Positions 6,189 to 62,023 of a stretch of 64,000 nt of DNA are shown one piece after another (positions within the stretch are counted from its first letter, which is position 1; each line of letters begins with the position of its first letter). The translations under genes were made by a program, and so were the position numbers. The notes beneath the pieces were generated by a model. It did no database searches. It worked only from the letters and a program-made list of their open reading frames with translations, and was not told the DNA's origin. The stretch is from Gammaproteobacteria bacterium (GTDB lineage: Bacteria; Pseudomonadota; Gammaproteobacteria; JABXHR01), in the NCBI GenBank assembly GCA_013373515.1, contig JABXHR010000016.1, forward strand, positions 20,000-83,999. The letters are read 5' to 3'.

Positions 6189-6243
6189 GCTTGGCTACAA
6201 TGCTACAATGTCACGGCAAAGTAGATTAAACAGGGAGAAAACT

Positions 6244-18407: not shown

Positions 18408-21799
<3,392 letters not shown>

Positions 21800-21810
21800 A
21801 TTGGTAAAAT

Positions 21811-22911: not shown

Positions 22912-23137
22912 ATATCTACCTTATATATATAAATATTGATGTTGCTAGTTCTAGCCAACTTTTGGTGGATAAGTTAATTTTTAACTTAAAAAACAATAAA
23001 TTATGTAAATAACAACTTTGTACATAACCAGCCAGCAAACCTCTGAGTAAAACCTGTATAACTACGATATTTTTCTATGACACGTTGTTGTCCACGGGTT
23101 TGTACAAAGGTTATCCCACGTGTTATCCACATTGAAA
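22912..23137. promoter_or_regulatory. dnaA-dnaN intergenic region with clustered DnaA boxes and an AT-rich tract; candidate oriC and/or dnaN regulatory region
   Basis: One perfect TTATCCACA at 23123-23131. Imperfect boxes at 23111-23119 (TTATCCCAC) and 23088-23096 (TTGTCCACG). Inverted box GGTGGATAA at 22964-22972. AT-rich 22911-23035 (TATATCTACCTTATATATATAAATATTGAT...). Confidence 0.5.
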
Positions 23138-24463
23138 TCACTCCTGCAAAATTCGCATAAGTGCTTGATAATCCTTCGAAAATCTCTCGTCCGTTTGAAG
23201 TAGTTCGTCAACCTTCTTAACCGCATGCATCACCGTTGTATGGTCACGGTCGCCAAATGCTTTGCCAATGTCATTCAAGCTGCTGTCGGTTAATTGTTTG
23301 GCCAATGCCATCGACATTTGTCTTGGACGCGCGATACGACGTGCACGCGACGCGCTGAGCAATTCTGTCATACTGAGTTTGAAAAATTCACAGGTATTGC
23401 GTTGTATATTGTCTACCGAGATCCTTCGATCCCGAGAGGCAAAAGTCTCGCGCAATGCACGCTTGGCAAGCTCAATAGTGATCGGCTGCTTTTGAAAATC
23501 TGCTTGCGCGATCACGCGGTTTAACGCCCCTTCGAGTTCGCGGACAGTCGAACCTCCGCGATCGGCTATCAATAGTGCGACATCGTCCGGTAACTGGTGC
23601 CCATTTCGTTCAGCCTTGGCATGAATGATTGCCACACAGACTTCAAGTTCCGGGCGTTCAATCTCGGCCACAAGCCCCCAAGCGAAACGAGAGCGCAGGC
23701 GCCCCTCTATACCTGTGACGTCCATTGGAAATTGGTCACAGGTCAGAACGATCTGTTTATTGGTGTCCAACAATGCATTGAACAGGTGAAAGAACTCTTC
23801 CTGGGTTCGATCTTTATTGGCAAAAAACTGAATATCATCGATTAACAGTGCATTCACATTTCTAAACGAGCGCTTGAACTCATCCATCGAGTTGCTGCGC
23901 AACGCAGCGACCATTCTTCGAAAATAATCCTCAGCCGACATACAAACCACATTGGCTTCGTGGTTGGCATCTTTGATTGCATTGCCTACGGCGTGCATCA
24001 AGTGCGTCTTGCCAACACTGTAAGGGCCAAAGATTACCAGAGGGTTGTAACGTACCCCAGGTTCTGATGCGGTTGCCATTGATGCGGCGCGAGCGAATTG
24101 ATTGGATTTCCCCTCGACGAAGGCATCAAAGGTGTAGTTTTTGATTAGCCCCGCCGAGGCAATCATCTGTTTGGGTTTCGCTGAGGTCGGATTTGGCACA
24201 GCTGACGCAGCTTTTTGCGGTCCACCTGTGGAATAAACGACCTTAAACGACTCAAGACCAGAAATTGCACGTGCTAGCTCGGCAATTCGGTCGCCAAACC
24301 GTGCCTGCAATTCTTGTTGCACGAATCGATTCGGTGCATATAGCGTCAAAGCAGTCTCAGAGAGGCTGTGTTGTAATGGATGAATATAGGTACTGACCAG
24401 CCCGGGATCGAATTCCGACTCTAAGCGACGAACACAATTGGCCCACAGCGGGTTGGACGACAC
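23138..24463 (-). CDS. dnaA: Chromosomal replication initiator DnaA
   Basis: AAA+ Walker A GPYSVGKTHL. C-terminal DNA-binding domain. 441 aa. Confidence 0.97.
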   Translation of the reverse strand: MSSNPLWANCVRRLESEFDPGLVSTYIHPLQHSLSETALTLYAPNRFVQQELQARFGDRIAELARAISGLESFKVVYSTGGPQKAASAVPNPTSAKPKQMIASAGLIKNYTFDAFVEGKSNQFARAASMATASEPGVRYNPLVIFGPYSVGKTHLMHAVGNAIKDANHEANVVCMSAEDYFRRMVAALRSNSMDEFKRSFRNVNALLIDDIQFFANKDRTQEEFFHLFNALLDTNKQIVLTCDQFPMDVTGIEGRLRSRFAWGLVAEIERPELEVCVAIIHAKAERNGHQLPDDVALLIADRGGSTVRELEGALNRVIAQADFQKQPITIELAKRALRETFASRDRRISVDNIQRNTCEFFKLSMTELLSASRARRIARPRQMSMALAKQLTDSSLNDIGKAFGDRDHTTVMHAVKKVDELLQTDERFSKDYQALMRILQE

Positions 24464-24603
24464 AGATTCTCCCCATCAAAACCGATCAACGACCCGCTAT
24501 CATACGAAGAATCGGTATAGTTATCCACAATAAAAGGAGTCAGCAGTTGACGTTCTAGGACTTTAATGCTAAATTTTCGCGTTCACTTATTGGAAGACAC
24601 GTT
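24464..24603. promoter_or_regulatory. Divergent dnaA/rpmH promoter region. Single perfect DnaA box at 24521-24529. Putative rpmH sigma70 promoter: -35 TTGACG 24547-24552, -10 TAAATT 24570-24575.
   Basis: TTATCCACA sits 58 nt upstream of the dnaA start. GATC at 24484-24487. TTGACG-N17-TAAATT lies about 30 nt upstream of the rpmH ATG. Confidence 0.45.
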
Positions 24604-24738
24604 ATGAAACGTACATTTCAACCTAGCGTTTTGAAGCGCAAGCGTTCACACGGCTTTCGTGCACGCATGGCAGATCGCCACGGCCGTGCAGTTCTGGCTC
24701 GTCGTCGCGCAAAAGGTCGTAAGCGCCTTTCAGCTTAA
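24604..24738 (+). CDS. rpmH: 50S ribosomal protein L34 (44 aa); not present in the ORF track
   Basis: Manual translation gives [44 protein letters not shown]. Confidence 0.92.
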
Positions 24739-24746
24739 TTTCAGGC

Positions 24747-25121
24747 GTGCTTGAATTCGTGGGTACGCGGCATTATACGTTTGAGCCTGAAAAACGGCTG
24801 CGTAAGCCCTCCGAATTTAAAATGGCCCTGACCTCAGGGCAGCGTGTACGACATCCTGTCATACATTTCGCACTCGATCACAACACCAATCAGCCACGCT
24901 TGGGACTTACTGTGCCCAAAAAAGTACTGCGACGAGCACATGATCGCAACCGAATCAAACGGTTGATACGGGAAAGCTTTCGCCACCATCAGCATAAACT
25001 GCCGCCAGTGAACATTGTGGCTATGGTACGATTCGGCATCGAAGAGCTCAGCAACCAAGAAATCTCGGAGATATTGGCCCATCAATGGCGACGGATCAAA
25101 CGGCAACACAACGCGCAATGA
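24747..25121 (+). CDS. rnpA: Ribonuclease P protein component
   Basis: RnpA motifs ...[29 protein letters not shown]... GTG start; exact start uncertain. Confidence 0.88.
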
Positions 25122-25336
25122 TTGGACTGATTAAGGTGTATCGCTACGGCATTTCACCCTTTTTGCCAGCTCGCTGTCGCTACATTCCAAGTTGCAGTGA
25201 ATATGCCCTTGATGCTGTTAAAATTCACGGTGCGATAATCGGCGGCAAATTAGCGGCCAAGCGGCTTTGCAGCTGTCATCCATGGGGTGGGCACGGCTAC
25301 GACCCAGTGCCTCCAAAACAAACAGAAACTAAATAG
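25118..25336 (+). CDS. yidD: Membrane protein insertion efficiency factor YidD
   Basis: [14 protein letters not shown]...[12 protein letters not shown]...[16 protein letters not shown] overlap with rnpA. Confidence 0.88.
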
Positions 25337-25348
25337 AGAACGGTTTAA

Positions 25349-26938
25349 ATGGAAAACCAACGCGTCTTTTTGTATACCGGCCTAGCCTTTTTGCTTTTCC
25401 TTGTATGGCAACAATGGCAAGTCGATTACGTTTTGCCAAAACCAGAGCCTGAAGCAATCCAAGTCGTCGAACAAGGGGTATCTGTCGATGGAACAGTCGG
25501 TAATACCGCGGCAACTGGCGACACCATCAGCGTATCAACGGACGTAATTTCTGCTGAGATTTCATTGAATGGTGGTGAAATCTCAAAACTCTCACTGGCA
25601 GATTATTCTGTTTCGCTTGAAAAGCAAGATGAGCAATTTGTTCTCTTAGATCGTTCGGCAGATCTATATAACGTTGCACAAAGTGGCCTTCAGGGCACCG
25701 GTGTTGGCTTGCCAGATCACCGCGCGACCTACAGTGCTGAGCAGACTAGCTATACCCTAGACGGCGATCAGCTTGTCGTACCAATGACATGGCAGCAAGA
25801 TGGCGTCACTGTCACCAAATCGCTGACCTTCACCAAAGGCAGTTATCAGGTTGAAGTGAATTACGCCATTGAAAGAGCGCCAGCGGGTTCGGAAGGACGT
25901 TATTACGCGCAGATTCAGCGCACTCAGGGCGAGTCGACCGGTGGGCTTGGTCAAGTCTACAGTTACACTGGCGGTGTTTATAGCTACAGCGAAGAGCGTT
26001 ACAACAAATACGACTTTGGCGACATGGCAGACAGTGACCTAAAGATGGACAACATCAAAGGTGGCTGGGTGGCGATGATTCAGCATTACTTTGCCGCTGC
26101 GGTTATTCCACCGCAAGATGATACTCATCGGTTCTATAGTACTACGGCCAATGAAGGGCGCATTTTTAGCCTCGGCATTCAGAGCGCAAAAGAAGCTGTT
26201 GGTGCTGACGGAACATTAACCCTAAGCCACAAGTATTACATAGGACCCAAAATCCAAGAAAAACTCGATGAAGCGGCGCCATTTTTACGCTTGACGGTTG
26301 ACTTTGGCTGGTTGTCCTTTGTAGCTGAAATATTGTTCTCGGTCTTGAAGTTCTTCCATCAATACGTGGGTAACTGGGGCTGGTCGATTATTTTGCTAAC
26401 ACTGCTAATTAAGCTGATTTTCTTCCCCTTGTCGAAGATGTCTTATACATCAATGGCAAAGATGAAACAGCTGACACCGAAGATCCAAGCCATCCGTGAG
26501 CAGTATTCCGACGATCAGGCAAAAATGGGCCAAGAGACCATGAACCTGTATCGCAAAGAGAAGGTCAATCCACTGGGTGGCTGTATTCCTATCTTGTTGC
26601 AGTTTCCGGTATTTATTGCCCTGTATTGGATGTTGGCCGAGTCGGTTGAGCTTCGCCAAGCGCCGTGGATTGGCTGGATTCAAGATCTTTCTATCAAGGA
26701 CCCTTGGTTCATCTTGCCTGTGATTTACATGGTGACGATGTTTATTCAGCAGCGTCTGAATCCACCGCCTGCAGATCCTATCCAGCAGAAGATTTTCCAG
26801 TGGATGCCAGTGATGTTCGGTGTGTTCTTTATGTTCTTCCCTGCAGGTCTGGTCTTGTACTGGGTGGTCAATAATACACTCACCATTGCACAGCAGTGGA
26901 CCATCATGCGCAACCTCGAGAAAAAAGGGCTGAAGTAG
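25349..26938 (+). CDS. yidC: Membrane protein insertase YidC
   Basis: N-terminal TM helix, large periplasmic domain, then a conserved C-terminal 5-TM core; 529 aa. Confidence 0.97.
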   Translation: MENQRVFLYTGLAFLLFLVWQQWQVDYVLPKPEPEAIQVVEQGVSVDGTVGNTAATGDTISVSTDVISAEISLNGGEISKLSLADYSVSLEKQDEQFVLLDRSADLYNVAQSGLQGTGVGLPDHRATYSAEQTSYTLDGDQLVVPMTWQQDGVTVTKSLTFTKGSYQVEVNYAIERAPAGSEGRYYAQIQRTQGESTGGLGQVYSYTGGVYSYSEERYNKYDFGDMADSDLKMDNIKGGWVAMIQHYFAAAVIPPQDDTHRFYSTTANEGRIFSLGIQSAKEAVGADGTLTLSHKYYIGPKIQEKLDEAAPFLRLTVDFGWLSFVAEILFSVLKFFHQYVGNWGWSIILLTLLIKLIFFPLSKMSYTSMAKMKQLTPKIQAIREQYSDDQAKMGQETMNLYRKEKVNPLGGCIPILLQFPVFIALYWMLAESVELRQAPWIGWIQDLSIKDPWFILPVIYMVTMFIQQRLNPPPADPIQQKIFQWMPVMFGVFFMFFPAGLVLYWVVNNTLTIAQQWTIMRNLEKKGLK

Positions 26939-26941
26939 CCC

Positions 26942-28297
26942 ATGTCTGACACCATCTGTGCCATTTCCACAGCCGCTGGGCAAGGTGGTGTCGGAATCGT
27001 TCGAATCAGCGGACCTCAAGCACTCGAGCTGGGGTCGCTGATCTGCCAAAAAGCTTCCCTCAAACCCAGATTCGCCACTCGGGCACAGTTTGGTATTGGC
27101 ACGCCCATCGACGATGGCATTGCGCTGTACTTTCCGGGTCCAAATTCGTTTACCGGTGAGGACGTTGTTGAGCTGCAAGGTCACGGCAGTCCTATTGCGT
27201 TAAATGCCCTCCTCCAAGCCCTTTGTGAACAGGGCGCGCGATTGGCCGAACCCGGTGAGTTTTCCAAACGAGCTTTTTTGAATGATCAATTAGATCTTGC
27301 TCAAGCCGAGGCGATTTCAGATCTGATCGCGGCCAACAGTGAGCGTGCCGCTCGAAGTGCTGTGCGGGCGCTTCGAGGGGAGTTTTCCACCCGAATTGAA
27401 ACGCTGGCCAAGGCAATGATTGAGCTCAGAGTGTGGGTGGAAGCGGCACTTGATTTTCCAGAAGAAGAAATCGATTTTCTCGCCGATGAAGCGCTCGCGG
27501 CACGGCTTGATCATGTGCGCAGTCTGATGGATGATATCTTGGCAAAAGCGACGCAAGGTGCGCTGTTGCGTAACGGTGCGAAGGTTGTGCTGATGGGTCG
27601 GCCTAACGCCGGTAAGTCGTCATTGCTCAACTACCTTGCCGACGAAGAACTCGCCATCGTGACGGATATTCCAGGAACCACTCGTGATCTGCTGTCGACT
27701 CAAATCAATCTTCACGGGGTTCCCTTACACATTACGGATACTGCGGGCTTGCGAGAGACGACAGATCCTGTCGAGCAGGAGGGCGTGCGCCGCGCACGCA
27801 AAGCCTTGAGCGAAGCAGATTTGGCGATTTTGATCGCGGACATCAATAGTCCAGAACATATGGATGAATTGAGCGAAGAGCTCGGGCGCGACTACCCCCA
27901 AGTCCCTATTCTCAAAGTGTTTAATAAACTCGATCAGCTTGAGACACATGTCAGCAAAAAACAGGATTTGTTTTTGCCTTTGGATCCCTCAGCGTTGCAA
28001 GTGTCAATTAAGCAGGCGATCGGCCTAGAGCAACTGAAGGACCAGCTCGCGCAACTGGTGGGTATCGATCAATCTGAGTCTGATGTTTTTATTGCGCGCA
28101 CCCGACACCTAGACGCATTGCGCCGTGCGCGTCAGCATTTTGATTGGGCAGAAGCGCAATTGTTGCAGTATGCCGCGGGTGAACTAATGGCAGAAGAGCT
28201 GCTGCAAGCGCATCATGCGCTGGGTGAGATTACCGGCAAACTGAGTGCTGACGATCTACTTGGTGAGATCTTCTCCAGTTTCTGTATCGGCAAATAA
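26942..28297 (+). CDS. mnmE: tRNA modification GTPase MnmE (TrmE)
   Basis: G-domain GRPNAGKSSLLN, DIPGTTRD, DTAG. C-terminal ...FCIGK. Confidence 0.97.
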   Translation: MSDTICAISTAAGQGGVGIVRISGPQALELGSLICQKASLKPRFATRAQFGIGTPIDDGIALYFPGPNSFTGEDVVELQGHGSPIALNALLQALCEQGARLAEPGEFSKRAFLNDQLDLAQAEAISDLIAANSERAARSAVRALRGEFSTRIETLAKAMIELRVWVEAALDFPEEEIDFLADEALAARLDHVRSLMDDILAKATQGALLRNGAKVVLMGRPNAGKSSLLNYLADEELAIVTDIPGTTRDLLSTQINLHGVPLHITDTAGLRETTDPVEQEGVRRARKALSEADLAILIADINSPEHMDELSEELGRDYPQVPILKVFNKLDQLETHVSKKQDLFLPLDPSALQVSIKQAIGLEQLKDQLAQLVGIDQSESDVFIARTRHLDALRRARQHFDWAEAQLLQYAAGELMAEELLQAHHALGEITGKLSADDLLGEIFSSFCIGK

Positions 28298-38456: not shown

Positions 38457-38533
38457 CCAGTTCACAAAACATAGATCGATGACTTGGGGTATAGTCTAAG
38501 TTGTTGATCTAAAAAGATTTTGTGAGGGTTTGC

Positions 38534-41500
38534 ATGATGCGAAATTTGACACATTCAAGCTTTCTCGTCGGATTATTGACGAGCTTGCTAGTGGTTTCTT
38601 GTGGTGGTGGCGGCGGATCAGATTCCGGAACGACAGACACTACAGATGGGGGCACACCGTCTGCACCAAACAGCGAGACACAAACCGTCAGCGGTAAAGT
38701 TATCGATGGCTACATTGAGAAGGCGCTGGTTTGTTTTGATGTGAACGCAAACCTTAAGTGTGACTCGGATGAGCCCCAGGCCTACACCGATGCATCGGGC
38801 AGCTATTCCATAGAAGACGCACCATCAGATTACGTCGGCAAATACCCCATCGTCGCTGAGATCATTAGCGGTGTTTCGATCGACCGTGATCGCAGTGAAC
38901 AACCTATTGAGCTTGACGGCAATCAAACCTCACTGAGTTTGATCACACCTGCCGGTGAAACCATTGTCACGCCATTGACCACGCTGGTTGCGCTCACTAA
39001 AACGGCTGAGCAAAACATGGCCGATGTCGAGGCCTTGATCAAAGCAGAGCTTCAACTTGATGAGAACATCTCGCTATTTGAAGACTTCATTGCGCCAGAA
39101 GGACATGACGAATCGTCTGATGAGTATTGGGCTTATCAAGAGGCACGTGGTCTTGCACAAGCGGCGTTCGATGCTGTCAAAGCCACGGTTGGCGGTGCGA
39201 TTGAGGATATTTCGTCAATCGAATCGCTGCAAGGCAAGGAAAGTGAAGTGCTGCGTGTGGCAATGAAAACTGCCACCAAAGCCGCGATTGTCGCTGTTAA
39301 GAATACGCGTGAAGTTTATAAAGACGTGGTGACTCAGGCGCGTAAGCAGGCTAAGGAAGCCAGTTTGGAGCAGGACATCGGGAAGTTGATGGCGCAAAAC
39401 AAGGCCATTCAATCGAAAGTAAGCGATGAGATCGATGTTCAGGTCAAGCAAATTGCCAAGCTCTCCAAGGTAGCGCTGGAAGAAATTGAGATTGCTGAGA
39501 ATGCTGAGCTACTCGACACAGTGGCCGAATTGAAAAAAGGCGGCTATTTCTTCGAGCTATCTGATACAGAGGACAATGGTTATTTCTACACAGAAGAAAT
39601 GCTGATGAACATCAAGGCTAATGACGATGGTTCATTGGACCTTCGAGGAGCTCGGTTGAGCGATATCGGGGATGCCGGCTCGCTAGACATCATGCGTTCG
39701 GTTAGCGATGGTGCAGATAGTTATAGTTCAAATGCGGCATTTAAACTCGCCAACAACCGATGGATCGGGCCAAACGATACTTCGAGTAGTGCAGGCTATA
39801 TGTGGCAAGATCTTGGAGATGGTCGAGTGGCCATCAAATTTGACCATGAAACAACGGTTGTGGCTGCAGGTGGCTACAGTGTACAAAGCTGGGAGGAGTT
39901 GCTCAAAACTGTAAGAGTCTATTCAGATCGTTCTGAAGCGACCTACATCATCGAAGGCGTGTTGGAAGGCCTGCGGGAAACGCCGCTGTTCGATGCACCA
40001 CCGGCAGACCAGCGCATTGTATTGGTCAGCGGGATTGATGATGCTGGATGGGGTGAGCTGTACGAAAGTGACATTACCGTCAATAAAGCCCTTAAGTTCT
40101 CCGGCACGCTTAGCACCGGCGACACCTTTGTCGGGCGCGTCAACCTAGAAAGCCAAAATTACAATTATCTAAATTGCCAGGACATCACCATTGTTCAGAC
40201 AGATGGCACCAGTGGGCAAGCCTCGCTGAACTGCGAGGTCTACACGCCAGATTGGCAGACGGTGGAAGTCGCAGCAGATGTACTGATGCATGCCGACGGC
40301 ATGGGACTTTCGGTGCAACACGATGGTGAGACCTACTACGGTGGGTTTAAACGTCATGAGGGCGTGTTATACGCGGTCTATGGCGGCAACAATGAATATC
40401 AAGCTTGGATCTCTCAAGCGCAGCCTAGCTCGCTGGAAGACTTAATCAACGATGTCAACACGGCACCCAAATTCGCGCCGATTGACAGTAATGTCACCGA
40501 GCCCTATGTAGATCTATGGGGTGAGCGTTTTTATCGCTATGCCGGAGAGATTGTTTGGATTCCGTCCGACACTTGGGACGACGGCAATGCGACATTTGAA
40601 AGCACATGCTCGCTTAGCGCAGAGGCTTTGAGCTGCACGACCACGCAAGTGACGGACAACGACTTTGAGTTAGCGTTGGGTGACTGGGGCTACAAAGAGA
40701 CTCGCAAGAACTCAATCGTGGTCACGCTGAACGATAAGGGCAATGAATGGTCCCCCTACGCATTTGAGAAATCGACAGAGATCTTAGGTATGGATGCTTA
40801 CAAGGAGTACCGCAGCGATTGGGATGACAACAAGCAGCGCTATGTGGAATCGGTTCGACGCGTTGAATCCGAGGGCTGGTCTGACAGCTACGGCTACTCA
40901 GAGGATGAAGTGGCAGCTTATGTGGCTAACTTCGATGGCGGGCAAAGCGTTGGCAACATTGAAGAGATCATCAACCCGACTGCACCAGCGACCATGCCAA
41001 CGGATCGTAAGACTTTGGACTCTACGCCTGGATTACGTGTGAATGGGGAATACCTCTACAAGGACGATACGGGCCAGATCTATTCGCTGTACATCGACTG
41101 GCAGCGTGAGTTCGATTGGGATGAGGGTTTGTTTAAGGACCTTGAAGTCGTCAAATCGACCGCGTGTGAAATTGTTGCTGACGCCTTGGTGTGCTCGATC
41201 ACTGACCGTTGGGGCAATCAAAATGTCATGACGTATTTTGTCGAAAACGCTACGGTTATGGTCAGCTCGTTGCACTTAAATTACAACGATGCTTTGGCGT
41301 TGGTGAGCAAAAGCGCACCAACCTCAATCGATGACTTGATGGCATCGGTGACTGCCGAGGGCGAGCCAACTGCGATGATTTCGGCCTACTATCAAAACGG
41401 TGACTGGTACAACAATATGTCACTGGCCATTGAAAACATGCAGGCTGGCGACACCTCGGGTACTGCGTTTGCAGGCTGGGGCACGCAGATGTTGGATGAT

Positions 41501-41782
41501 TGGTCCAAGGCGGAAGACTGGGGCTTTGACAATATCGGTTGGTCGGTTAGAACCATCGGCGGCAGCCAAGCATTGATCTGGGATCAGCCCTTCTGCGGCA
41601 CTGAGGACGAGGCATCGGATGATGATGCATCGGACTACTGTAGCTATCAAATCATCGCCGAGCACGATGGTGCACTTTATGCTGGCTACTATGGCGTGGA
41701 TAAGAGAGAGTTCATCATTCCAATGCTGTCCAAAGCACAAGTACAACAAGTGCTCGACGCCTACCTGTCATATGCGCCTTAG
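38534..41782 (+). CDS. Large (1083 aa) acidic lipoprotein of unknown function
   Basis: Signal peptide with lipobox MMRNLTHSSFLVGLLTSLLVVSC followed by a Gly/Ser/Thr/Asp linker. Rich in Asp/Glu/Trp/Tyr. I recognised no known domain. Confidence 0.6.
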   Translation: MMRNLTHSSFLVGLLTSLLVVSCGGGGGSDSGTTDTTDGGTPSAPNSETQTVSGKVIDGYIEKALVCFDVNANLKCDSDEPQAYTDASGSYSIEDAPSDYVGKYPIVAEIISGVSIDRDRSEQPIELDGNQTSLSLITPAGETIVTPLTTLVALTKTAEQNMADVEALIKAELQLDENISLFEDFIAPEGHDESSDEYWAYQEARGLAQAAFDAVKATVGGAIEDISSIESLQGKESEVLRVAMKTATKAAIVAVKNTREVYKDVVTQARKQAKEASLEQDIGKLMAQNKAIQSKVSDEIDVQVKQIAKLSKVALEEIEIAENAELLDTVAELKKGGYFFELSDTEDNGYFYTEEMLMNIKANDDGSLDLRGARLSDIGDAGSLDIMRSVSDGADSYSSNAAFKLANNRWIGPNDTSSSAGYMWQDLGDGRVAIKFDHETTVVAAGGYSVQSWEELLKTVRVYSDRSEATYIIEGVLEGLRETPLFDAPPADQRIVLVSGIDDAGWGELYESDITVNKALKFSGTLSTGDTFVGRVNLESQNYNYLNCQDITIVQTDGTSGQASLNCEVYTPDWQTVEVAADVLMHADGMGLSVQHDGETYYGGFKRHEGVLYAVYGGNNEYQAWISQAQPSSLEDLINDVNTAPKFAPIDSNVTEPYVDLWGERFYRYAGEIVWIPSDTWDDGNATFESTCSLSAEALSCTTTQVTDNDFELALGDWGYKETRKNSIVVTLNDKGNEWSPYAFEKSTEILGMDAYKEYRSDWDDNKQRYVESVRRVESEGWSDSYGYSEDEVAAYVANFDGGQSVGNIEEIINPTAPATMPTDRKTLDSTPGLRVNGEYLYKDDTGQIYSLYIDWQREFDWDEGLFKDLEVVKSTACEIVADALVCSITDRWGNQNVMTYFVENATVMVSSLHLNYNDALALVSKSAPTSIDDLMASVTAEGEPTAMISAYYQNGDWYNNMSLAIENMQAGDTSGTAFAGWGTQMLDDWSKAEDWGFDNIGWSVRTIGGSQALIWDQPFCGTEDEASDDDASDYCSYQIIAEHDGALYAGYYGVDKREFIIPMLSKAQVQQVLDAYLSYAP

Positions 41783-56294: not shown

Positions 56295-56930
56295 TTAGTG
56301 GCGAAGGATGGTCGCCGTGCTCACGCTAATGGCCGCCAGTGCGCTAATCGCCAAATCTAGTTCGCGTCGGGTGGCATTGCGTTCACGGTGAACATCACGA
56401 AGTTGCTGGTTGGTATGGTTACGTGCTTTGGCCAAAGATTCAAGCTGTTCTATAGGTAATTTTCCTTGCTGAATAAGTAAGGTCAGTCGTCGGCTTTCTC
56501 GACGTAACTTGTCGCGCTGATTCTCTAAACGTTCTAGAGACTGTTTTAAGTCAGTCACTTTGCGCTGCGCATCGTGTAGGCGCTTAGCGGGATTGTAGGT
56601 GCTTAAAAAGCGACTTTCGGCCGGACAAATGCCTCGGTAGTTGTTGCCTTTACTGCCTTCGGACCATCCATTTTCGGCGGTGCAATAGTTTTGCAGACCA
56701 ACGGTATAGCCAGTTTGATATTGAGCAGGATCGACGGTAATGCCGTAATCATCACAAGCATTTTGATGGTCAGCCATTCTTAATGCAGGGTAGCCCGATT
56801 GGGCGTCATATTGGCCAATGGTTGTCCAATCTTGAGCTTTGCACTGTGATTCACTTAAAGTGGCGCATCCGCTCATGGTAAACAAGCAGAGGATGAAACT
56901 AAATTTTAAGGATGGTTGTATAGGTTTCAT
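56295..56930 (-). CDS. DUF2799 family lipoprotein with C-terminal coiled coil
   Basis: Signal plus lipobox FTMSGC. Conserved C..DW..IG..DG..G and YCT..NG...G..G..Y.G.CP patterns. Coiled-coil tail. Confidence 0.55.
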   Translation of the reverse strand: MKPIQPSLKFSFILCLFTMSGCATLSESQCKAQDWTTIGQYDAQSGYPALRMADHQNACDDYGITVDPAQYQTGYTVGLQNYCTAENGWSEGSKGNNYRGICPAESRFLSTYNPAKRLHDAQRKVTDLKQSLERLENQRDKLRRESRRLTLLIQQGKLPIEQLESLAKARNHTNQQLRDVHRERNATRRELDLAISALAAISVSTATILRH

Positions 56931-57053
56931 GGCGCGATCTTCCCACGACATAGGCGGCAATTCGCTGAATGTCGCTCGTCTCTCAATATTGGACTAACTC
57001 ACACTGTAATTATGAGTAACCCGCTTATCTTAGGGCTGCAATCAAGGATAACG

Positions 57054-58415
57054 ATGATGAAAAATACGCTTTTTCGCACGGCGATAACCTTAGTTTTTGG
57101 TCTGTCAGTGACATTGGCAAACGCGGCTGAGCCAATTGTTCAGGTACCACCAAAGCCACCGATTAGTGCTGATCAAGAGGCATGGTTGGATCAAATTCGC
57201 TCACAAATCAACAATATTAATACTGAGCAATTGGTGGCTCAATTGGCAGAGGACCCAATGACCTATGTGGTCGATGTGCGCTCGGTCGATGAAATCACGC
57301 GATTGGGCGGTCAGATTAAAGCGCCACGACGGTTTGTGGTCGAGCGGGGCTGGCTGGACATAAGGGCAGATTTGATCTTCCCGAATAAAGATGTACCGAT
57401 TGTGGTCTATTGCGGTGTCAACCAGCGCAGCCCATTGGCAGCCAAGGCGTTAATGGATCTTGGTTACACCAACGTGATGAACTATACGGATGGTTATTTT
57501 GAGTGGGCCAATTCGGGGCATCCCATTGAGCAAGCCGACGCAGATCTAGAGAGCTTTTTGTACCGACGCCCAATGAAGGTGGCTGACAATGTCTACTCGG
57601 CGATTGGTGCCACTCAGCCCGGCACCTACGCCAACAGTGGCCATAACAATAATCTTTCCTTTGTCATCACCAACGATGGTGTTCTGGTGATGAATTCTGG
57701 CGACAATTATCTGCTCGCTCAGGCTTTGCACGACGAGATCAAGTTGCTCACGGATCAACCAGTAAAATACGTGGTACTCGAGAATGCACAGGGCCACGCC
57801 ATGCTGGGCTCCAAATACTGGAAAGAGCAAGGCGCCGAAATTATTGCCCATGTCGATGCGGTTGATGAAATCGACTCTCACGGTGAAGCCATTCTCAATC
57901 GGATGAAAAATCGAGCCCATGAAAAGGCATATCGTACAGAGGTGGTGTTGCCGGATATTTCGTTTGAGGACGAGTATATTTTACAAATGGGCGATACCAC
58001 TATCGAAGTTCGTCACTATGGCCCTGCCCACAGCCCAGGTGATATTTCTGTTTGGCTACCCGCACAAAAATTAATGATTTCCGGTGATGCGATGTTTAAT
58101 GAGCGCATGCTGCCAATCTTTGATGACACTGACACAGCGGGATGGCTGGAGACTTGGGAAGTATTTGAAGCGCTCGCGCCTGAGGTCATTATTCCAGGGC
58201 ATGGCCATCCCACAGACATGGCAACGGTTCGTCGATTTACCCGTGACTATTTGGCGTATATGCGTGATGAAATTGCAGCCATTCTCGACGAGGGAGGAAG
58301 CTTGGACGACGCAGTCGAAATCAATCAGAGTCAGTTTGTAACATTCGATACCTACGACGAGCTTCATCGTGTCAATGCAGCACGGATATTTCAAATGATG
58401 GAATTTGAGTTTTAG
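57054..58415 (+). CDS. Periplasmic fusion protein: rhodanese domain (catalytic Cys present) plus a metallo-beta-lactamase-fold domain with a degenerate metal-binding motif
   Basis: Signal peptide MMKNTLFRTAITLVFGLSVTLANA. Rhodanese active-site loop VYCGVNQRS. MBL-like region has ENAQGH in place of HxHxDH, but retains a His (HYGPAH), an Asp (SGD) and a His (IIPGHGH). Confidence 0.65.
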   Translation: MMKNTLFRTAITLVFGLSVTLANAAEPIVQVPPKPPISADQEAWLDQIRSQINNINTEQLVAQLAEDPMTYVVDVRSVDEITRLGGQIKAPRRFVVERGWLDIRADLIFPNKDVPIVVYCGVNQRSPLAAKALMDLGYTNVMNYTDGYFEWANSGHPIEQADADLESFLYRRPMKVADNVYSAIGATQPGTYANSGHNNNLSFVITNDGVLVMNSGDNYLLAQALHDEIKLLTDQPVKYVVLENAQGHAMLGSKYWKEQGAEIIAHVDAVDEIDSHGEAILNRMKNRAHEKAYRTEVVLPDISFEDEYILQMGDTTIEVRHYGPAHSPGDISVWLPAQKLMISGDAMFNERMLPIFDDTDTAGWLETWEVFEALAPEVIIPGHGHPTDMATVRRFTRDYLAYMRDEIAAILDEGGSLDDAVEINQSQFVTFDTYDELHRVNAARIFQMMEFEF

Positions 58416-58564
58416 CGATTTTGGCGCCGGCTTCTTTAAAGGTCGGCTAGGCCACCTTGCTTGGCGCGTGCATTTCGGCACCGGAAAGCTTGTAGCGCTT
58501 ATTCATCTTGCTTTAGGCAGAGTTTGTTAGGCTACCGCAATCAATCGTTGCTGGAGCCTATGGA

Positions 58565-59014
58565 ATGAAACTCACGCATATTCCGCCTGTTGCCGTGGCC
58601 CTCGTCTTAATGGTCATGGTGGTTGTCACACGAACTTTCGATGTGTTTGCGGTCGACGGTGGGGTGGCCAGTTTTTGTCTGATCTTTGGTGTGATCGCCG
58701 CGCTATTTGGCTTCTCCGCGCTGTGTGAATTTCGACACCGCAAAACGACGGTTAATCCAATCGATGTTAATCGCGCCAGTGCACTCGTTGACACTGGCGT
58801 GTTCGGTTTGACCCGCAATCCCATGTATGTGGCGATTGTATTGGCACTCGCGTCCTGGACCGCAGGGCTCGGCAGCTTGCTGGGATTCGTGTGGGTGTTG
58901 GCGCTCTATTTCTGGTTAGACCGTGTGCAGATTCCGCGCGAAGAAGCCGCGCTGACAGAGCTGTTCGGTGATGATTATGTGGCTTACCAGACGCGGGTGG
59001 CGCGTTGGTTTTAA
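58565..59014 (+). CDS. Isoprenylcysteine carboxyl methyltransferase (ICMT/PEMT) family membrane methyltransferase
   Basis: 149 aa. C-terminal ...GVFGLTRNPMYVAIVLALASW...EEAALTELFGDDYVAYQTRVARWF, characteristic of the ICMT/PEMT family. Confidence 0.7.
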   Translation: MKLTHIPPVAVALVLMVMVVVTRTFDVFAVDGGVASFCLIFGVIAALFGFSALCEFRHRKTTVNPIDVNRASALVDTGVFGLTRNPMYVAIVLALASWTAGLGSLLGFVWVLALYFWLDRVQIPREEAALTELFGDDYVAYQTRVARWF

Positions 59015-59034
59015 TCCAACGCGCTCATAATGCC

Positions 59035-60621
59035 TTAGTGCCCCGCAGGTGCTTCCTGGCCCTGATAGTCGACCGCTAGTCCATAGACTGGGTCGTCGTA
59101 TTCCTCCATCAACACCATTTTGCCTTTCTTATCGAGCAATGCTCGGCAATCTGCGCTGAGGTGGCGTAAGACCAGTGTTTTGCCCGCACGGTCGTATTTC
59201 TCGGCCAAGGTTTCGATGGCTTCGATACCCGAGTGATCCCAAACCCGTGCATTGAAGAAATCGACTTCGGTGACATCTGGGTCTTCATTCGGCGTGAAGA
59301 AATAATGAAATTCAGACGCAGATCCGAAAAACAAATGGCCGTTGATCTTGTAGTGCTTGCCATCGCTGTCAACATGTGAGCTGACGTTCAGGTGTTTGGC
59401 CATTTCCCACGAATACACCAACGCCGACACAATCACGCCCACGATAACCGCGACCGCCAAGTCAGAGATCACGGTGACCCCAGAGACCAAAATCAGCACA
59501 AAGGCGTCTTTGAGTGGGATCTGGCGGATGATGTTGAAGCTTGACCAAGCAAAGGTGCCAATGACGACCATAAACATCACGCCCACCAGTGCAGCGATGG
59601 GAATTTGCTCGATCAGTGAGGATGCAAACAAGATAAAGCTCAACAGGAACAGCGCTGCGGCAATACCGGCTGTGCGCCCACGGCCGCCGGAGGAGACATT
59701 GATCATGGTCTGTCCGATCATCGCGCAGCCACCCATTGTGCCGAAGAAGCCACTAACGACGTTTGCCGCGCCTTGGGCCAAACACTCACGACTGGCGCCG
59801 CCGCGTTTGTCGAGCATGTCATTCACTAGGTTGAGTGTGAGCAACGATTCGATTAATCCGACCGCGGCCAAGATCAGCGCATAGGGGAAAATGATGGTCA
59901 ATGTTTCAAAGTTCATTGGTACATCGGGAATGATAAAGGTTGGCAACCCAGCAGACAGAGACGCCATATCACCCACAGTTCGGGTATCAATGTCTAGGAC
60001 AATGGCCAGAATGGAGACCACCACAATGGCTAGCAACGGCCCCGGAATGGCTTTAGTAAGCTTAGGTGTCACCCAAATCAGTGCCATGGTTAGACCGATC
60101 AGACCGAGCATGCCGTACATCGCCATGCCACTGAGCCAAACCGTATCGCCGTTGGGGAGGGTTTCTTTGAACTGGCTCATCTGTGCCAGAAAAATAACAA
60201 TGGCAAGCCCGTTTACAAAACCAAGCATCACTGGGTGCGGCACCATGCGAATTAGTTTACCTAGCCGGAATATGCCAGCGAGTAGTTGCAATATGCCCAT
60301 CAAAACGACAGTCGCAAACAGATATTGCACACCGTGCTCAACGACAAGTGCGGTCATCACCACGGCCAATGCGCCTGTGGCGCCGGAAATCATGCCGGGG
60401 CGACCGCCGAAGATGGCGGTAATTAAGCCTACAAAAAAGGCGGCATAAAGGCCGACCAGCGGATCCACTTGTGCGACGAAGGCAAAGGCAATTGCTTCGG
60501 GCACCAGTGCCAGTGCGACGGTGAGCCCCGACAGGGTGTCGATTCGCATTTGGCCGAGGTCGGGAGAACTTAAATTAGAGGGTGCAATGGACTTTGCAAA
60601 AGAGCTTAAAGTTGCGCGCAA
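59035..60621 (-). CDS. SulP family inorganic anion transporter with C-terminal STAS domain
   Basis: Polytopic SulP core plus a STAS-like tail (...KINGHLFFGSASEF...). Confidence 0.85.
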   Translation of the reverse strand: MRATLSSFAKSIAPSNLSSPDLGQMRIDTLSGLTVALALVPEAIAFAFVAQVDPLVGLYAAFFVGLITAIFGGRPGMISGATGALAVVMTALVVEHGVQYLFATVVLMGILQLLAGIFRLGKLIRMVPHPVMLGFVNGLAIVIFLAQMSQFKETLPNGDTVWLSGMAMYGMLGLIGLTMALIWVTPKLTKAIPGPLLAIVVVSILAIVLDIDTRTVGDMASLSAGLPTFIIPDVPMNFETLTIIFPYALILAAVGLIESLLTLNLVNDMLDKRGGASRECLAQGAANVVSGFFGTMGGCAMIGQTMINVSSGGRGRTAGIAAALFLLSFILFASSLIEQIPIAALVGVMFMVVIGTFAWSSFNIIRQIPLKDAFVLILVSGVTVISDLAVAVIVGVIVSALVYSWEMAKHLNVSSHVDSDGKHYKINGHLFFGSASEFHYFFTPNEDPDVTEVDFFNARVWDHSGIEAIETLAEKYDRAGKTLVLRHLSADCRALLDKKGKMVLMEEYDDPVYGLAVDYQGQEAPAGH

Positions 60622-60709
60622 AACAATTTTTGGGTTTGAATGAATACTAATCTTAAGCGTTTTTGCAATTTTTTTCTGATTGGTTTGTCAGGCCGGTAGG
60701 GAGATCTAT

Positions 60710-61495
60710 ATGCGCGAGTTAATGATGTTGATGTGTTTGTTGAGTCCACCGAGCATGGCTGCGCTCGATACCGTGTACCCAGATTGGTTTTATCCAAGCT
60801 TTTTGGAGCTAGACGACGATGCCTTAATTGCAGGTGATGAAGACAAGTCGCTCATGCTGTTCGTGATGCAATCCGAATGTCCTTACTGTCATGAGATGGT
60901 GCAAACGACCTTCGCGGACCCATCGGTACGTGAGCATATCGAGGCACAATTCTTAGTGGTTCAAATTGATATGTTCGGTAGCCGAGAGGTAATGGTCGGT
61001 GGCCAATCAATGACAGAAACAGAGTTTGCGAAGCGCTTGGGAATTCAGTTTACCCCGACCTTGCTGGTGTTTGATGCCGCGCTGAATTTAACCCAGCGCA
61101 TTGATGGCTTTCTAGCGCCAGAAGCGTTTCTGGATCGCTTGTCAAAGCCCGTGGTGGCCGTGCAGCGCGAGAACTCGGTGCTGTATATCAACTGGCCGAG
61201 GGAGTGCAATGAAGCCTGTCAAAGGCTCAAAGCGATCAGATCGAGTGTCGATGAGTTGACGATTGTGGAGCGCAATTCCAACTTGGAGCCTTGGCCGAGT
61301 TTGTACTTCGCGGATGACGTTCAAGGTGAGCTGGTCAACACCAATGCCATGTTTAAGCCGCTGCACTTTCGCGCCATTTTGTCTTGGTTGTCGACGAAGG
61401 CATATCGCGACGAACCCGAGTTTCAACGGTATCTCAATCGCTACGCTGATGTACTCAGAGACAGTGGCGAAATCGTCGAAGTTTGGGCAGACTAA
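60710..61495 (+). CDS. Periplasmic thioredoxin-fold protein with CPYC active site and an additional C-terminal domain
   Basis: Signal peptide MRELMMLMCLLSPPSMAA and a SECPYCHEM redox motif. RBS GGGAG upstream of ATG 60710. Confidence 0.6.
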   Translation: MRELMMLMCLLSPPSMAALDTVYPDWFYPSFLELDDDALIAGDEDKSLMLFVMQSECPYCHEMVQTTFADPSVREHIEAQFLVVQIDMFGSREVMVGGQSMTETEFAKRLGIQFTPTLLVFDAALNLTQRIDGFLAPEAFLDRLSKPVVAVQRENSVLYINWPRECNEACQRLKAIRSSVDELTIVERNSNLEPWPSLYFADDVQGELVNTNAMFKPLHFRAILSWLSTKAYRDEPEFQRYLNRYADVLRDSGEIVEVWAD

Positions 61496-61507
61496 GCCAA
61501 TCATTAC

Positions 61508-62023
61508 TTGAAAAGTCCCAGCGAATATATGCCGGATCACTCGTCTATCGCAACAGTGCTCAGTAAATTGCTGCCATTGGTGTCTAGGGTATCAACCAGC
61601 ATTCGCAATTTAATGTTGCTCATCCTGGTTTCGGTTGGCGCATTGATCGCTGTTGCGGGCCTCATATTTGATTGGAGCGCAATTTGGTTGTTGGCGGTGG
61701 GCGCTATTTTACTGCTGCCGCTTGTTGTGTTGGCTTGGTTTTGGTGGGCGCTTTGTGACATTCAACAGCTGCCCGAGACACTCACCGATATTCAAACTGA
61801 AGTCCGTTTGGCCAAACAGCCCAAGCCCCAGAGCGGTAGCATCTTGCGGCAACTGTTTGATATGCGAGGGCTTTTGCTTGGCGCTGCTGAAGTGACCGGC
61901 CAGTATTTCTCTATTGCACCGCTTATTAATCCCATAGTGTTGGGTTTGCTGCTGCTGTCATGGGTGGTTGGTTGGATCACGGTGGTGGTATCTGTGGTGA
62001 TCTTGTTGGTCGTTTTTGTATAG
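61508..62023 (+). CDS. Hypothetical polytopic inner-membrane protein (about 4 TM), likely co-transcribed with the CPYC protein
   Basis: Begins 12 nt after the upstream gene. Highly hydrophobic segments. Confidence 0.5.
   Translation: MKSPSEYMPDHSSIATVLSKLLPLVSRVSTSIRNLMLLILVSVGALIAVAGLIFDWSAIWLLAVGAILLLPLVVLAWFWWALCDIQQLPETLTDIQTEVRLAKQPKPQSGSILRQLFDMRGLLLGAAEVTGQYFSIAPLINPIVLGLLLLSWVVGWITVVVSVVILLVVFV

Follow-up and report, generated by a model that had tools for sequence, protein, structure and literature searches.

The question raised by this locus is whether six neighbouring genes for envelope proteins (Table 1) work loosely together in the sulfur or thiol chemistry of the periplasm, as an earlier note had read it, or whether a single gene among them accounts for its interest. 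The six ORFs and the motifs CGVNQRS and ENAQGH were all found where that note had placed them. The answer to which we lean is one gene, encoding an intact, Sec-exported protein in which a rhodanese of the sulfurtransferase type is joined to a variant metallo-beta-lactamase (MBL) domain of the SoxH lineage; the product (hereafter Rhd-MBL) belongs to a large uncharacterised family, probably acts on sulfane or thiosulfonate sulfur with a single metal in its active site and is probably not part of a gene cluster.

Table 1. Features of the locus; positions refer to the window, that is, the whole 64-kb stretch of DNA that was analysed.
Feature	Position	Strand	Remarks
DUF2799 lipoprotein	56295-56930	-	Pfam DUF2799, E = 4e-21; divergent from the Rhd-MBL gene
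Rhodanese-MBL fusion gene (Rhd-MBL)	57054-58415	+	453 aa; Pfam Rhodanese and Lactamase_B
Predicted Sec signal peptide, aa 1-24	57054-57125	+	Read by eye; cleavage after ANA
Rhodanese domain, aa 58-153	57225-57512	+	Pfam PF00581, E = 1e-10, 42.1 bits (cut-off 22.2)
Variant MBL domain, aa ~165-453	57546-58412	+	SoxH-like alpha-beta-beta-alpha fold, C-terminal helical extension
Variant motif E243-N-A-Q-G-H-A249	57780-57800	+	Replaces S-H-x-H-x-D-H
PEMT/ICMT-like membrane methyltransferase	58565-59014	+	Pfam PEMT, E = 2e-8, 34.8 bits (cut-off 25)
SulP/STAS anion transporter	59035-60549 or 60621	-	Pfam Sulfate_transp, E = 5e-53, plus STAS
Thioredoxin-fold protein, exported	60680 or 60710-61495	+	Pfam Thioredoxin_2, E = 4e-18
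Small polytopic membrane protein	61508 or 61529-62023	+	Family-less

The Rhd-MBL gene starts at the second in-frame Met cluster of an ORF that spans positions 56916-58415, and an identical protein is called on Logan contig SRR11434631_5. The N-terminus (MMKNTLFRTAITLVFGLSVTLANA/AE), read by eye, looks like a Sec signal peptide in its n-, h- and AxA regions, with K3 and R8 in the basic n-region, a hydrophobic core and A-N-A at -3 to -1; hydrophobic N-termini also occur in the 22 homologues of alignment A1, in agreement with the export predicted earlier. Residues 1-33 have pLDDT values below 50 in the AF2 model of the protein (overall pLDDT 85, pTM 0.74). The rhodanese domain, which among solved chains comes closest to 6mxv, Sud (1qxn) and 2hhg, carries a six-residue CX4R catalytic loop, C120-G-V-N-Q-R125, with Cys120 (codon 57411-57413) located in the stretch VVYCGVNQRSPLAA. 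This loop is indeed intact, as had been claimed: C120, G121, R125, S126 and P127 are unchanged in 116/116 homologues (median pairwise identity 61%).

By sequence and by predicted fold, the MBL half of the protein belongs to the SoxH/class-B lineage and not to the persulfide dioxygenases (PDOs). Pfam Lactamase_B matches aa 253-383 (E = 1e-9), and the NCBIfam model TIGR04559 is matched from one end to the other (aa 175-452 on model positions 6-283 of 283), albeit with a score of 154 bits, short of the 280-bit cut-off. The NCBIfam matches listed are headed by the SoxH-related TIGR04559 and TIGR04558 together with class B lactamases and include no PDO family, which bears out the earlier exclusion of an ETHE1/CstB/Blh-type enzyme. 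The structure prediction proposed in the earlier note yields a confident MBL fold, with 8d2z, Chd (6uxu) and the B2 enzymes CphA and Sfh-I as the best Foldseek matches. A comparison with a canonical relative is provided by a Thiothrix protein (P0003), in which a canonical SoxH-like domain (320 bits against the TIGR04559 cut-off of 280) is fused to rhodanese and variant MBL domains; this SoxH-like domain is 28% identical to the variant MBL domain of Rhd-MBL (BLASTP, E = 6e-33).

In an ungapped pairwise alignment with the canonical SoxH-like domain, the variant domain shows the changes H116N, H118Q, D120H and H121A (BBL numbering) and retains H196, D221 and H263; N244 is aligned with Asn116 of CphA. 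The altered residues lie in the stretch VVLENAQGHAMLG, E243 to A249, and the retained ones in the motifs GPAHSPGD (H326), ISGDAMF (D345) and PGHG (H383). The earlier note had called the first motif degenerate while observing that the later His, Asp and His ligands persist. The second statement holds, given that H326, D345 and H383, along with D330 and R351, are unchanged in 116/116 homologues, whereas the first has to be revised: E243, N244, Q246, G247, H248 and A249 are equally unchanged in 116/116, and the invariance of E-N-x-Q-G-H-A marks a conserved alternative site rather than decay. An N-x-G-H-N-N-N loop (N194/G196/H197/N198-N200) is invariant in the same set. The window copy has Asn at position 349, compared with His in 113/116 relatives, but keeps 134 of the 144 positions with at least 95% conservation and is intact.

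The Rhd-MBL family is large (6351 matches in the database search; at least 582 species genomes) and is concentrated in environmental sulfur oxidisers, with at least 44 of 80 genomes named Thiobacillus, Thiotrichaceae, Chromatiaceae or Granulosicoccaceae. The variant MBL domain is retained in a protein with a Cys-to-Ser substitution in the rhodanese domain (P0126), in proteins that lack the rhodanese domain (P0124, P0127, P0129 and P0136) and in combination with other N-terminal partners, which makes it the core functional module. A connection with sulfur oxidation is visible in some genomes: sox genes are present in 7/80 Rhd-MBL loci and, in five of these, Rhd-MBL lies inside the sox operon on the same strand, with no sox genes within 8 kb in the remaining 73. 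The arrangements include RhdMBL-soxB-X-Y-Z-A (L042), soxYZABCD..soxF-RhdMBL (L074), soxYAB..CD-RhdMBL (L060) and, in Thiothrix (L054, L080), soxXYZA followed by the SoxH-rhodanese-variant MBL fusion; in addition, a stand-alone variant MBL gene adjoins soxCDXYZA in divergent orientation (L166). The 64-kb window contains no sox or other sulfur-oxidation genes. Rhodanese, SoxYZ-like and SoxH-like genes are reported to co-occur in ped/xox clusters (PMC12997753), and the function of SoxH is described as unknown or only proposed (PMC11237559, PMC10045233).

The products of the adjacent genes are heterogeneous. The DUF2799 gene call (211 aa, in an ORF extendable to 56960) encodes a lipobox-like MSGC, read from the sequence; the methyltransferase scores 18.7 bits against the Pfam ICMT model, under the cut-off of 24; the thioredoxin-fold protein consists of two thioredoxin_2-like halves, with CPYC in the first and CNEAC in the second; and the small membrane protein has no match in Pfam or NCBIfam. 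The view that these are separate transcription units is right insofar as strands alternate, with two exceptions: the thioredoxin and membrane protein genes, on the same strand with a gap of 13-33 bp, probably form an operon, and the Rhd-MBL and PEMT genes, also on one strand with a gap of 149 bp, are possibly cotranscribed. In a consensus scan, promoter-like sites were fewer than in shuffled sequence and terminator-like sites no more numerous than there.

Whether the six genes function together depends on their fate in other genomes. Because the host is a deep-branching lineage (best non-self GyrB match, 67% identity), synteny could be compared with distant relatives only: among 80 loci around Rhd-MBL homologues, the DUF2799, PEMT and small membrane protein genes are each found in 0/80, SulP in 2/80 and thioredoxin in 5/80, the joint conservation of Rhd-MBL with DUF2799, ICMT or SulP that the earlier note had proposed to examine thus amounting to 0, 0 (PEMT) and 2 loci. 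A separate set of 80 loci around SulP homologues contains none of the other window genes, and the most frequent neighbour family occurs in at most 13/80 Rhd-MBL loci, the recurring families reflecting clade-specific synteny. Together with the alternating strands, these counts render a loose six-gene module improbable, and the coherence attributed to the neighbourhood is not sustained, even though all six proteins belong to the envelope and several contain sulfur- or thiol-related domains. What speaks for such a module, apart from the few SulP and Thioredoxin_2 relatives, centres on the thioredoxin: the best relative of the window protein (45% identity over 142 aa) is encoded in the L060 sox cluster, 2.3 kb from the Rhd-MBL homologue and next to soxS-, soxR- and soxT-like genes, and in M. 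extorquens the rhodanese/SoxYZ/SoxH trio is joined by a thioredoxin-like gene (PMC12997753). A weak link of the window thioredoxin to sox-type sulfur handling is therefore possible and it may be a loose associate of Rhd-MBL; the DUF2799, PEMT, SulP and small membrane protein genes are probably unrelated neighbours and the Rhd-MBL gene is probably solitary.

Under the single-gene reading, the probable substrate of Rhd-MBL is sulfane or thiosulfonate sulfur, handled at a site with one metal. The di-zinc motif of the MBL domain would have been remodelled and not lost: judging by residue positions, site 1 would now comprise Asn244 and Gln246, with His326 retained, and site 2 would comprise His248, Asp345 and His383. 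A single metal is expected at the His-Asp-His site because of the analogy with the Asn116-containing mono-zinc enzymes of subclass B2. E243, N244 and Q246, together with R351 and the N-x-G-H-N-N-N loop, would then define a pocket suited to an anionic sulfur group. Periplasmic Cys120 would hold sulfane sulfur as a persulfide, comparable to Sud and PspE, and the MBL domain would hydrolyse or otherwise process a thiol-bound sulfur adduct, candidate substrates being the cysteine of a SoxY-type carrier and a low-molecular-weight thiosulfonate or polysulfide. Rhodanese and MBL domain would then act as a relay, the same pairing as that of the separate rhodanese, SoxH-like and SoxYZ-like genes in the "quinoprotein relay" clusters.

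Three other interpretations concern the MBL domain itself. It might be a pseudoenzyme, a scaffold or binding domain devoid of a metal site, with the rhodanese as the sole catalyst, given that four canonical ligand positions (116, 118, 120 and 121) are substituted and that the nearest solved relative, 8d2z, is likewise non-canonical (SHYHAVR; Arg at the H263 position) and uncharacterised. We consider this unlikely, since the substituted positions are occupied by invariant polar residues next to the fully conserved classical ligands, and the persistence of the domain after loss of the rhodanese Cys or of the entire rhodanese domain runs opposite to the behaviour expected of an accessory scaffold; invariance alone does not, however, separate catalysis from specific binding. 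A periplasmic PDO analogue, with a 2-His-1-Asp iron site for the oxidation of the rhodanese persulfide to sulfite, is as improbable as the six-gene module. H248, H383 and D345, or H326 and D345 with another His, could in principle make up a 2-His-1-carboxylate triad, and rhodanese-PDO fusions exist in either domain order, with those of cable bacteria (Rho-PDO) described as uncharacterised (PMC13047784). However, sequence and fold group the domain with SoxH, class B enzymes, Chd and alkylsulfatases and not with glyoxalase II/ETHE1, Gln occupies BBL position 118, where PDOs have the first iron ligand, and Sec export together with the absence of a glutathione-type context fits known PDOs poorly. 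That Rhd-MBL is a subclass-B2-like beta-lactamase, an antibiotic-resistance enzyme with an extra domain, is almost certainly wrong: it shares Asn116 with CphA and Sfh-I, and B2 families are among its NCBIfam and Foldseek matches, but its B2 score of 59.8 bits stays below the cut-off of 240, H118, D120 and C221 are all replaced, and the family resides mostly in environmental sulfur oxidisers.

Among known systems, the rhodanese half of Rhd-MBL resembles the exported single-Cys rhodaneses Sud (1qxn) and PspE (2jtq), with sequence matches at 9e-16 and 6e-6, respectively; both, however, stand alone and lack a fused MBL domain. The PDO-rhodanese fusions (CstB, BpPRF 5ve3, 3tp9 and the cable-bacteria Rho-PDO) likewise combine an MBL fold and a rhodanese in one chain for sulfur handling but are cytoplasmic members of the glyoxalase II/ETHE1 clade, the iron ligand positions of which are unconserved in the variant MBL domain; in the solved examples the domain order is opposite, as the earlier note stated, the rhodanese being C-terminal in 5ve3 (aa 273-372) and 3tp9 (aa 375-473).

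The solved chain closest to the variant MBL domain, both by sequence (E = 2.5e-31) and by fold (E = 2.7e-23; TM-score (target) 0.78), is 8d2z, a structural genomics entry for an MBL-superfamily protein of Burkholderia cenocepacia for which the literature search found no publication. The two share the C-terminal helical extension, but 8d2z has no rhodanese domain and retains the opposite half-site, keeping H116 and H118 and losing D120, H121 and H263 (PGRG). The B2 enzymes CphA and Sfh-I (Foldseek E ~1e-16; TM-score (target) 0.85-0.87) have Asn116, H196 and H263 in common with the variant domain. The active metal of B2 enzymes occupies the 120/221/263 site, which is the only complete site left in the variant domain, although the latter has Gln for H118, His for D120 and Asp for C221, extends about 60 aa further at its C-terminus and is fused to a rhodanese; nothing points to a beta-lactam substrate. 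Compared with SoxH and the "quinoprotein relay system zinc metallohydrolases" (TIGR04558 and TIGR04559), the variant domain differs in its sub-threshold score, in the invariant NxQxHA in place of HxHxDH, in the N-terminal rhodanese fusion and in the lack of sox or PQQ genes nearby in the window. Nevertheless, it shares with them the periplasmic MBL fold of ~285 aa with a C-terminal helical extension, in some genomes comes last in a sox operon, in the manner of soxH, and, like the SoxH-like proteins of the ped/xox clusters, is partnered with a rhodanese.

The central protein of the locus, a 453-aa product in which a rhodanese domain is followed by a variant metallo-beta-lactamase (MBL) domain (Rhd-MBL), belongs as an unexceptional member to a large, uncharacterised family with only generic annotation, for which a new variant within the SoxH kind is the best description. 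A search of 5.8 billion proteins gave 6351 matches, the best non-self ones at 53-60% identity, and nearly all of the 120 matches listed share the Rhodanese + Lactamase_B architecture; in a pattern scan with one genome per species, at least 582 species encode a relative. The rhodanese domain (PF00581, aa 58-153) reaches 42.1 bits where the cut-off is 22.2, and the variant domain matches Lactamase_B (PF00753) over aa 253-383 with 38.9 bits, the cut-off being 22.7. The translation contains the string VVYCGVNQRS, with Cys120 as its cysteine, and the rhodanese active-site loop, C120-G-V-N-Q-R125, has six residues; a loop of this length marks the sulfurtransferase type, the seven-residue CX5R loop being that of Cdc25 and Acr2. 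The loop had been described as intact in the earlier note, and C120 and R125 are indeed kept in all 116 full-length homologues aligned (median pairwise identity 61%), along with G121, S126 and P127. The export claimed from the first reading is likewise supported by a putative Sec-type signal peptide, read by eye, that would end with ANA ahead of AE, and a periplasmic location of Rhd-MBL is accordingly predicted from the sequence.

The H-x-H-x-D-H metal motif is absent from the variant domain, which contains N244-A-Q246-G-H248-A249 instead (the string VVLENAQGHA, holding E243-A249, followed in the translation by GPAHSPGD, ISGDAMF and PGHG), and the downstream ligands H196, D/C221 and H263 (class B BBL numbering) are present as H326, D345 and H383. 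The motif had been called degenerate; however, E243, N244, Q246, G247, H248 and A249 are each invariant in the same alignment (116/116), and this invariance at every substituted position indicates that the motif has not merely decayed. Equally invariant are the three downstream ligand positions, the N-x-G-H-N-N-N loop (N194, G196, H197, N198, N199, N200) and, elsewhere, N214, H226, D330 and R351. In genome annotation, 'ENxQGH' should not be taken for a decayed MBL.

The possibility that the window protein is a pseudogene or a decayed copy was rejected given that, among 144 positions with a conservation of 95% or more, it departs from the consensus at ten only and retains 134. The ten deviations are mostly conservative; the one of note, Asn349, which is His in 113 of the 116 relatives, sits in the G-D-x-A-F-H-x-R segment after D345 and is shared by the best long match, P0002.

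With respect to the origin of the variant domain, the best NCBIfam match is TIGR04559, the SoxH-related 'quinoprotein relay system zinc metallohydrolase 2', aligned end to end at 154 bits (cut-off 280), with TIGR04558 and class B lactamase families next; stand-alone versions of the domain score 153-163 bits on the same model. An AF2 model of Rhd-MBL (pLDDT 85, pTM 0.74) yields 548 PDB matches at E <= 1e-3 in a fold search, with MBL-fold proteins on top, as befits an alpha-beta-beta-alpha fold. By both sequence and fold, the closest solved chain is 8d2z, an uncharacterised Burkholderia cenocepacia structural-genomics protein for which no paper was found in the open-access literature, and it is followed by chlorothalonil dehalogenase, the subclass B2 enzymes CphA and Sfh-I, B1 enzymes and alkylsulfatases. 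A direct comparison with the canonical form is afforded by two three-domain proteins (P0002, P0003), that of Thiothrix lacustris and a related metagenomic protein, in which a canonical SoxH-like domain precedes the rhodanese and variant domains; the canonical domains carry the SHYHADH motif and, at 320 and 311 bits, exceed the TIGR04559 cut-off. In an ungapped BLASTP alignment of the MBL half of the window protein with the canonical domain of P0003 (28% identity, E = 6e-33), E243 corresponds to Ser, N244 to H116, Q246 to H118, H248 to D120, A249 to H121, H326 to H196, D345 to D221 and H383 to H263.

When 1.84 billion cluster representatives were searched exhaustively with HMMER, 111 of them matched at E <= 1e-30. 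Other forms of the variant domain, all with E-N-x-Q-x-H-A retained, are seen in this set: it stands alone (P0124, P0127, P0129, P0136), is joined to a domain of the dienelactone-hydrolase or alpha/beta-hydrolase type (P0122, P0134) or follows a rhodanese-like domain that lacks the catalytic cysteine (Cys to Ser in P0126; degenerate N-terminal domains in P0130, P0137 and P0138). What stays constant is thus the variant domain, with the rhodanese as a common accessory. A sister clade, next outward in the representatives search, is made up of exported SoxH-like proteins, some 310 aa in length, that have another non-canonical motif, T-G-x-Q/E-D-H-R-W (P0154, P0160, P0164, P0166, P0167, P0170, P0174), which shares Gln118 and His120 with the variant domain, and canonical HxHxDH proteins appear only beyond this clade. 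The NCBIfam cut-off is reached by none of the variant domains, the T-G-x-Q/E-D-H-R-W clade or the canonical outer clades.

Genomic context was examined in 80 loci that extend up to 8 kb to either side of a Rhd-MBL homologue; 58 of them measure 10 kb or more. By name, no fewer than 44 of the 80 genomes are Thiobacillus/Thiobacillaceae, Thiotrichaceae/Thiothrix/Cocleimonas, Chromatiaceae/Ectothiorhodospiraceae or Granulosicoccaceae. Seven loci (L009, L042, L054, L056, L060, L074, L080) contain sox genes, called by SoxY with a GGCGG C-terminus, SoxA and SoxB, and in five of the seven the Rhd-MBL gene lies inside the sox operon on the same strand. In L042, it comes first and, after a 28-bp gap, is followed by soxB-X-Y-Z-A. 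In L074, the order is soxY-Z-A-B-C-D, one ORF of no assigned identity, a gene for an FCSD-type flavoprotein and Rhd-MBL; in L060, it is soxY-A-B, one such ORF, soxC-D and Rhd-MBL, followed by soxT-, soxR- and soxS-like genes on the opposite strand (gene identities in both loci were confirmed by Pfam scans). The position in L074 is the one that soxH takes in Paracoccus-type clusters. The other two of the five are the Thiothrix loci L054 and L080, where the three-domain gene comes after soxX-Y-Z-A (see table). Independently, the stand-alone protein P0129 is encoded divergently, 181 bp from soxC of a soxC-D-X-Y-Z-A cluster with soxB beyond it. The contigs of P0125 and P0124 are shorter than 1.5 kb and hold no neighbours, and the neighbourhood of P0126 is uninformative. 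Within the 64 kb of the window, no sox homologue, SoxY-type protein or SoxY-type C-terminus was detected.

A recent review of the Pseudomonas ped genes (2026) reports that certain PQQ dehydrogenases are consistently accompanied by the genes of a rhodanese-domain protein (PP_2666), a SoxYZ-like carrier in fused form (PP_2677) and a metallo-hydrolase resembling SoxH (PP_2678), and in M. extorquens the homologues of this trio are co-transcribed with a thioredoxin-like gene (PMC12997753). No description of the ENxQGH family, of a rhodanese-SoxH fusion or of a periplasmic rhodanese-MBL fusion was found in the open-access literature.

The window lies within a contig of 111 kb from the NCBI MAG (NVK296xx, HWE20_ tags) and holds the chromosomal replication-origin region, which places the Rhd-MBL locus in the core chromosome, about 33 kb from dnaA. 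The best non-self match of GyrB in the search of 5.8 billion proteins has 67% identity, the named matches at 64-67% including Chromatiales, Granulosicoccus, Thioalkalivibrio, Thiohalobacter and Thiolapillus, and since no closer relative is seen, the MAG represents a deep-branching gammaproteobacterial lineage. Horizontal acquisition of Rhd-MBL was considered, but its 57-60% identity to the best matches is in line with that of GyrB, and vertical descent in a deep lineage accounts for both values. The G+C content is 0.47-0.49 over the DUF2799 and Rhd-MBL genes and 0.52-0.54 on both flanks, a dip too small to make a case for recent transfer. The remaining annotated genes of the window are housekeeping or transport genes; several large ORFs received no Pfam assignment under the thresholds applied (see table).

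Coordinates of features in the window and in loci around homologues
Feature	Sequence	Position	Strand	Remark
ORF, 454 aa	window	4824-6188		no Pfam family at thresholds used
ORF, 353 aa	window	6208-7269		no Pfam family at thresholds used
Replication-origin region	window	18408-28297
gyrB	window	18408-20759	-
recF	window	20786-21799	-
dnaN	window	21811-22911	-
dnaA	window	23138-24463	-
yidC	window	25349-26938	+
mnmE	window	26942-28297	+
ORF, 1086 aa	window	38522-41782		no Pfam family at thresholds used
DUF2799 lipoprotein	window	56295-56930	-
Segment of lower G+C	window	56500-58000
Rhd-MBL	window	57054-58415	+
Codon of Asn349	window	58098-58100	+
Thioredoxin-fold protein	window	60710-61495	+
ORF, >558 aa	window	62326-end		no Pfam family at thresholds used
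SoxH-rhodanese-variant MBL gene (Thiothrix)	L054	6945-9260		directly after soxX-Y-Z-A
SoxH-rhodanese-variant MBL gene (Thiothrix)	L080	3271-5628		directly after soxX-Y-Z-A
Stand-alone variant MBL (P0129)	L166	6001-6993
Thioredoxin relative	L060	11625-12785		closest relative
Thioredoxin relative	L163	4737-5747		overlaps Sulf_transp gene

All six ORFs named in the earlier note are present at the locus, and the same genes were called in the source assembly. Pfam upholds the family assignments (DUF2799 at E = 4e-21; Sulfate_transp and STAS for SulP; Thioredoxin_2), the methyltransferase matches PEMT at 34.8 bits, with the ICMT model below its own threshold on the same protein, and the domain scan assigned the small membrane protein to no family. 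The strands alternate among the six genes. The thioredoxin and membrane-protein genes look operon-like (same strand, 13-33 bp apart), and the Rhd-MBL and PEMT genes, 149 bp apart on the same strand, are a weaker candidate; promoter-like sites are fewer than in shuffled sequence, and terminator-like sites are about as frequent, so that the scan for them is uninformative. A C-terminal extension of the DUF2799 lipoprotein (aa ~116-193, about 80 aa) weakly matches SMC/Rad50 coiled-coil regions and is probably itself a coiled coil. The thioredoxin, for which the homologue search found only three relatives, consists of two Trx_2-like halves, the first with CPYC and the second with CNEAC in place of CxxC; its closest relative adjoins the soxS-, soxR- and soxT-like genes of L060, and another overlaps a Sulf_transp (YeeE/SoxT-type) gene, which hints that this double-thioredoxin family accompanies sulfur importers.

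That the six genes form a functional module, as the coherence of the neighbourhood had suggested, is very improbable. Among the 80 homologue loci, compared by tblastn, the DUF2799, PEMT and membrane proteins occur in none, SulP in two and thioredoxin in five, all counts coming from distant relatives because the host lineage is isolated. De novo clustering of the neighbouring ORFs places every family in at most 13 of the 80 loci, the recurrent ones reflecting clade-specific synteny, mostly of Thiobacillus, and in the reverse direction no other window gene was found in 80 metagenomic loci around SulP homologues (51-79% identity). The module is thus not conserved, and the thematic likeness of adjoining envelope genes is no evidence for one here. 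Given the loss of HxHxDH, the variant domain could be a pseudoenzyme or a binding scaffold, an unlikely reading because it fits poorly with the persistence of the domain where the rhodanese cysteine is gone. A dioxygenase of the persulfide dioxygenase (PDO) kind would find two of the Fe(II) triad positions in place (H196 and D221), and N-terminal-rhodanese PDO fusions, uncharacterised members of the PDO clade, have been reported in cable bacteria (PMC13047784); nevertheless, this assignment is very doubtful, as the first iron ligand, the second His of HxHxDH, is Gln246 and the clade is wrong. PDB matches 5ve3 and 3tp9 align to the rhodanese part only, and no PDO family is among the NCBIfam and Pfam matches listed, in agreement with the previous statement that the protein is not a standard PDO. 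A B2-type lactamase is scarcely credible: in the profile alignment to CphA, N244 falls exactly on the B2-defining Asn116, but of the signature N116/H118/D120/C221/H263 only N116 and H263 are matched, the other three residues being replaced, and the score of 59.8 bits is far below the cut-off of 240.

The reading that we favour, if by a narrow measure of confidence, is that Rhd-MBL is a functional, SoxH-lineage enzyme that handles sulfur in the periplasm and that the genes around it do not make up a module; far less confidence would attach to any specific substrate. Site 1 of the variant domain (116/118/196) would have lost its usual zinc binding, and site 2, converted to His248/Asp345/His383, could hold one metal ion by analogy with the Asn116-containing B2 enzymes, which run on one zinc, placed at 120/221/263. 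A pocket that accepts an anionic sulfur group may be shaped by E243, N244, Q246, R351 and the H197-N200 loop; R351 follows D345 by a few residues and maps near the place where Lys224 of class B enzymes holds the carboxylate of the substrate. Sulfane sulfur would be the cargo of the rhodanese, and a sulfur adduct, either cysteine-bound or of low molecular weight, the substrate of the variant domain. This division of labour is suggested by the recurrence of rhodanese, SoxH-like and SoxY-type carrier proteins, which elsewhere have separate genes and in this family are met as a fusion and within sox operons. A bolder version, of rather low probability, is that the variant domain represents a distinct MBL catalytic type, with a mononuclear His-Asp-His site, an Asn/Gln/Glu/Arg anion pocket and a rhodanese persulfide supplied in cis, that carries out an as yet unassigned periplasmic step of sulfur oxidation, for example by trimming or releasing sulfur species from the carrier cysteine of SoxY. 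Were that so, the fusion would be a 'Rosetta stone' for SoxH, the original paper on which is reportedly Rother et al. 2001 and the function of which has been unknown since 2001.

The interest of the family is moderate and lies mainly in the handle that it offers on SoxH function. SoxH-type periplasmic metallo-hydrolases are encoded in many sox and PQQ-dehydrogenase clusters, yet have no assigned reaction. Here, in hundreds of species, the fold is covalently joined to a sulfurtransferase domain, its metal motif is invariantly rewired and it sometimes replaces soxH inside sox operons; these features provide a testable route to the role of the whole SoxH lineage and suggest that the lineage acts on cysteine-bound sulfane or thiosulfonate sulfur. 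Compared with the SoxH-related proteins of TIGR04559, the variant domain aligns over the same end-to-end length but is devoid of HxHxDH and scores under the family cut-off.
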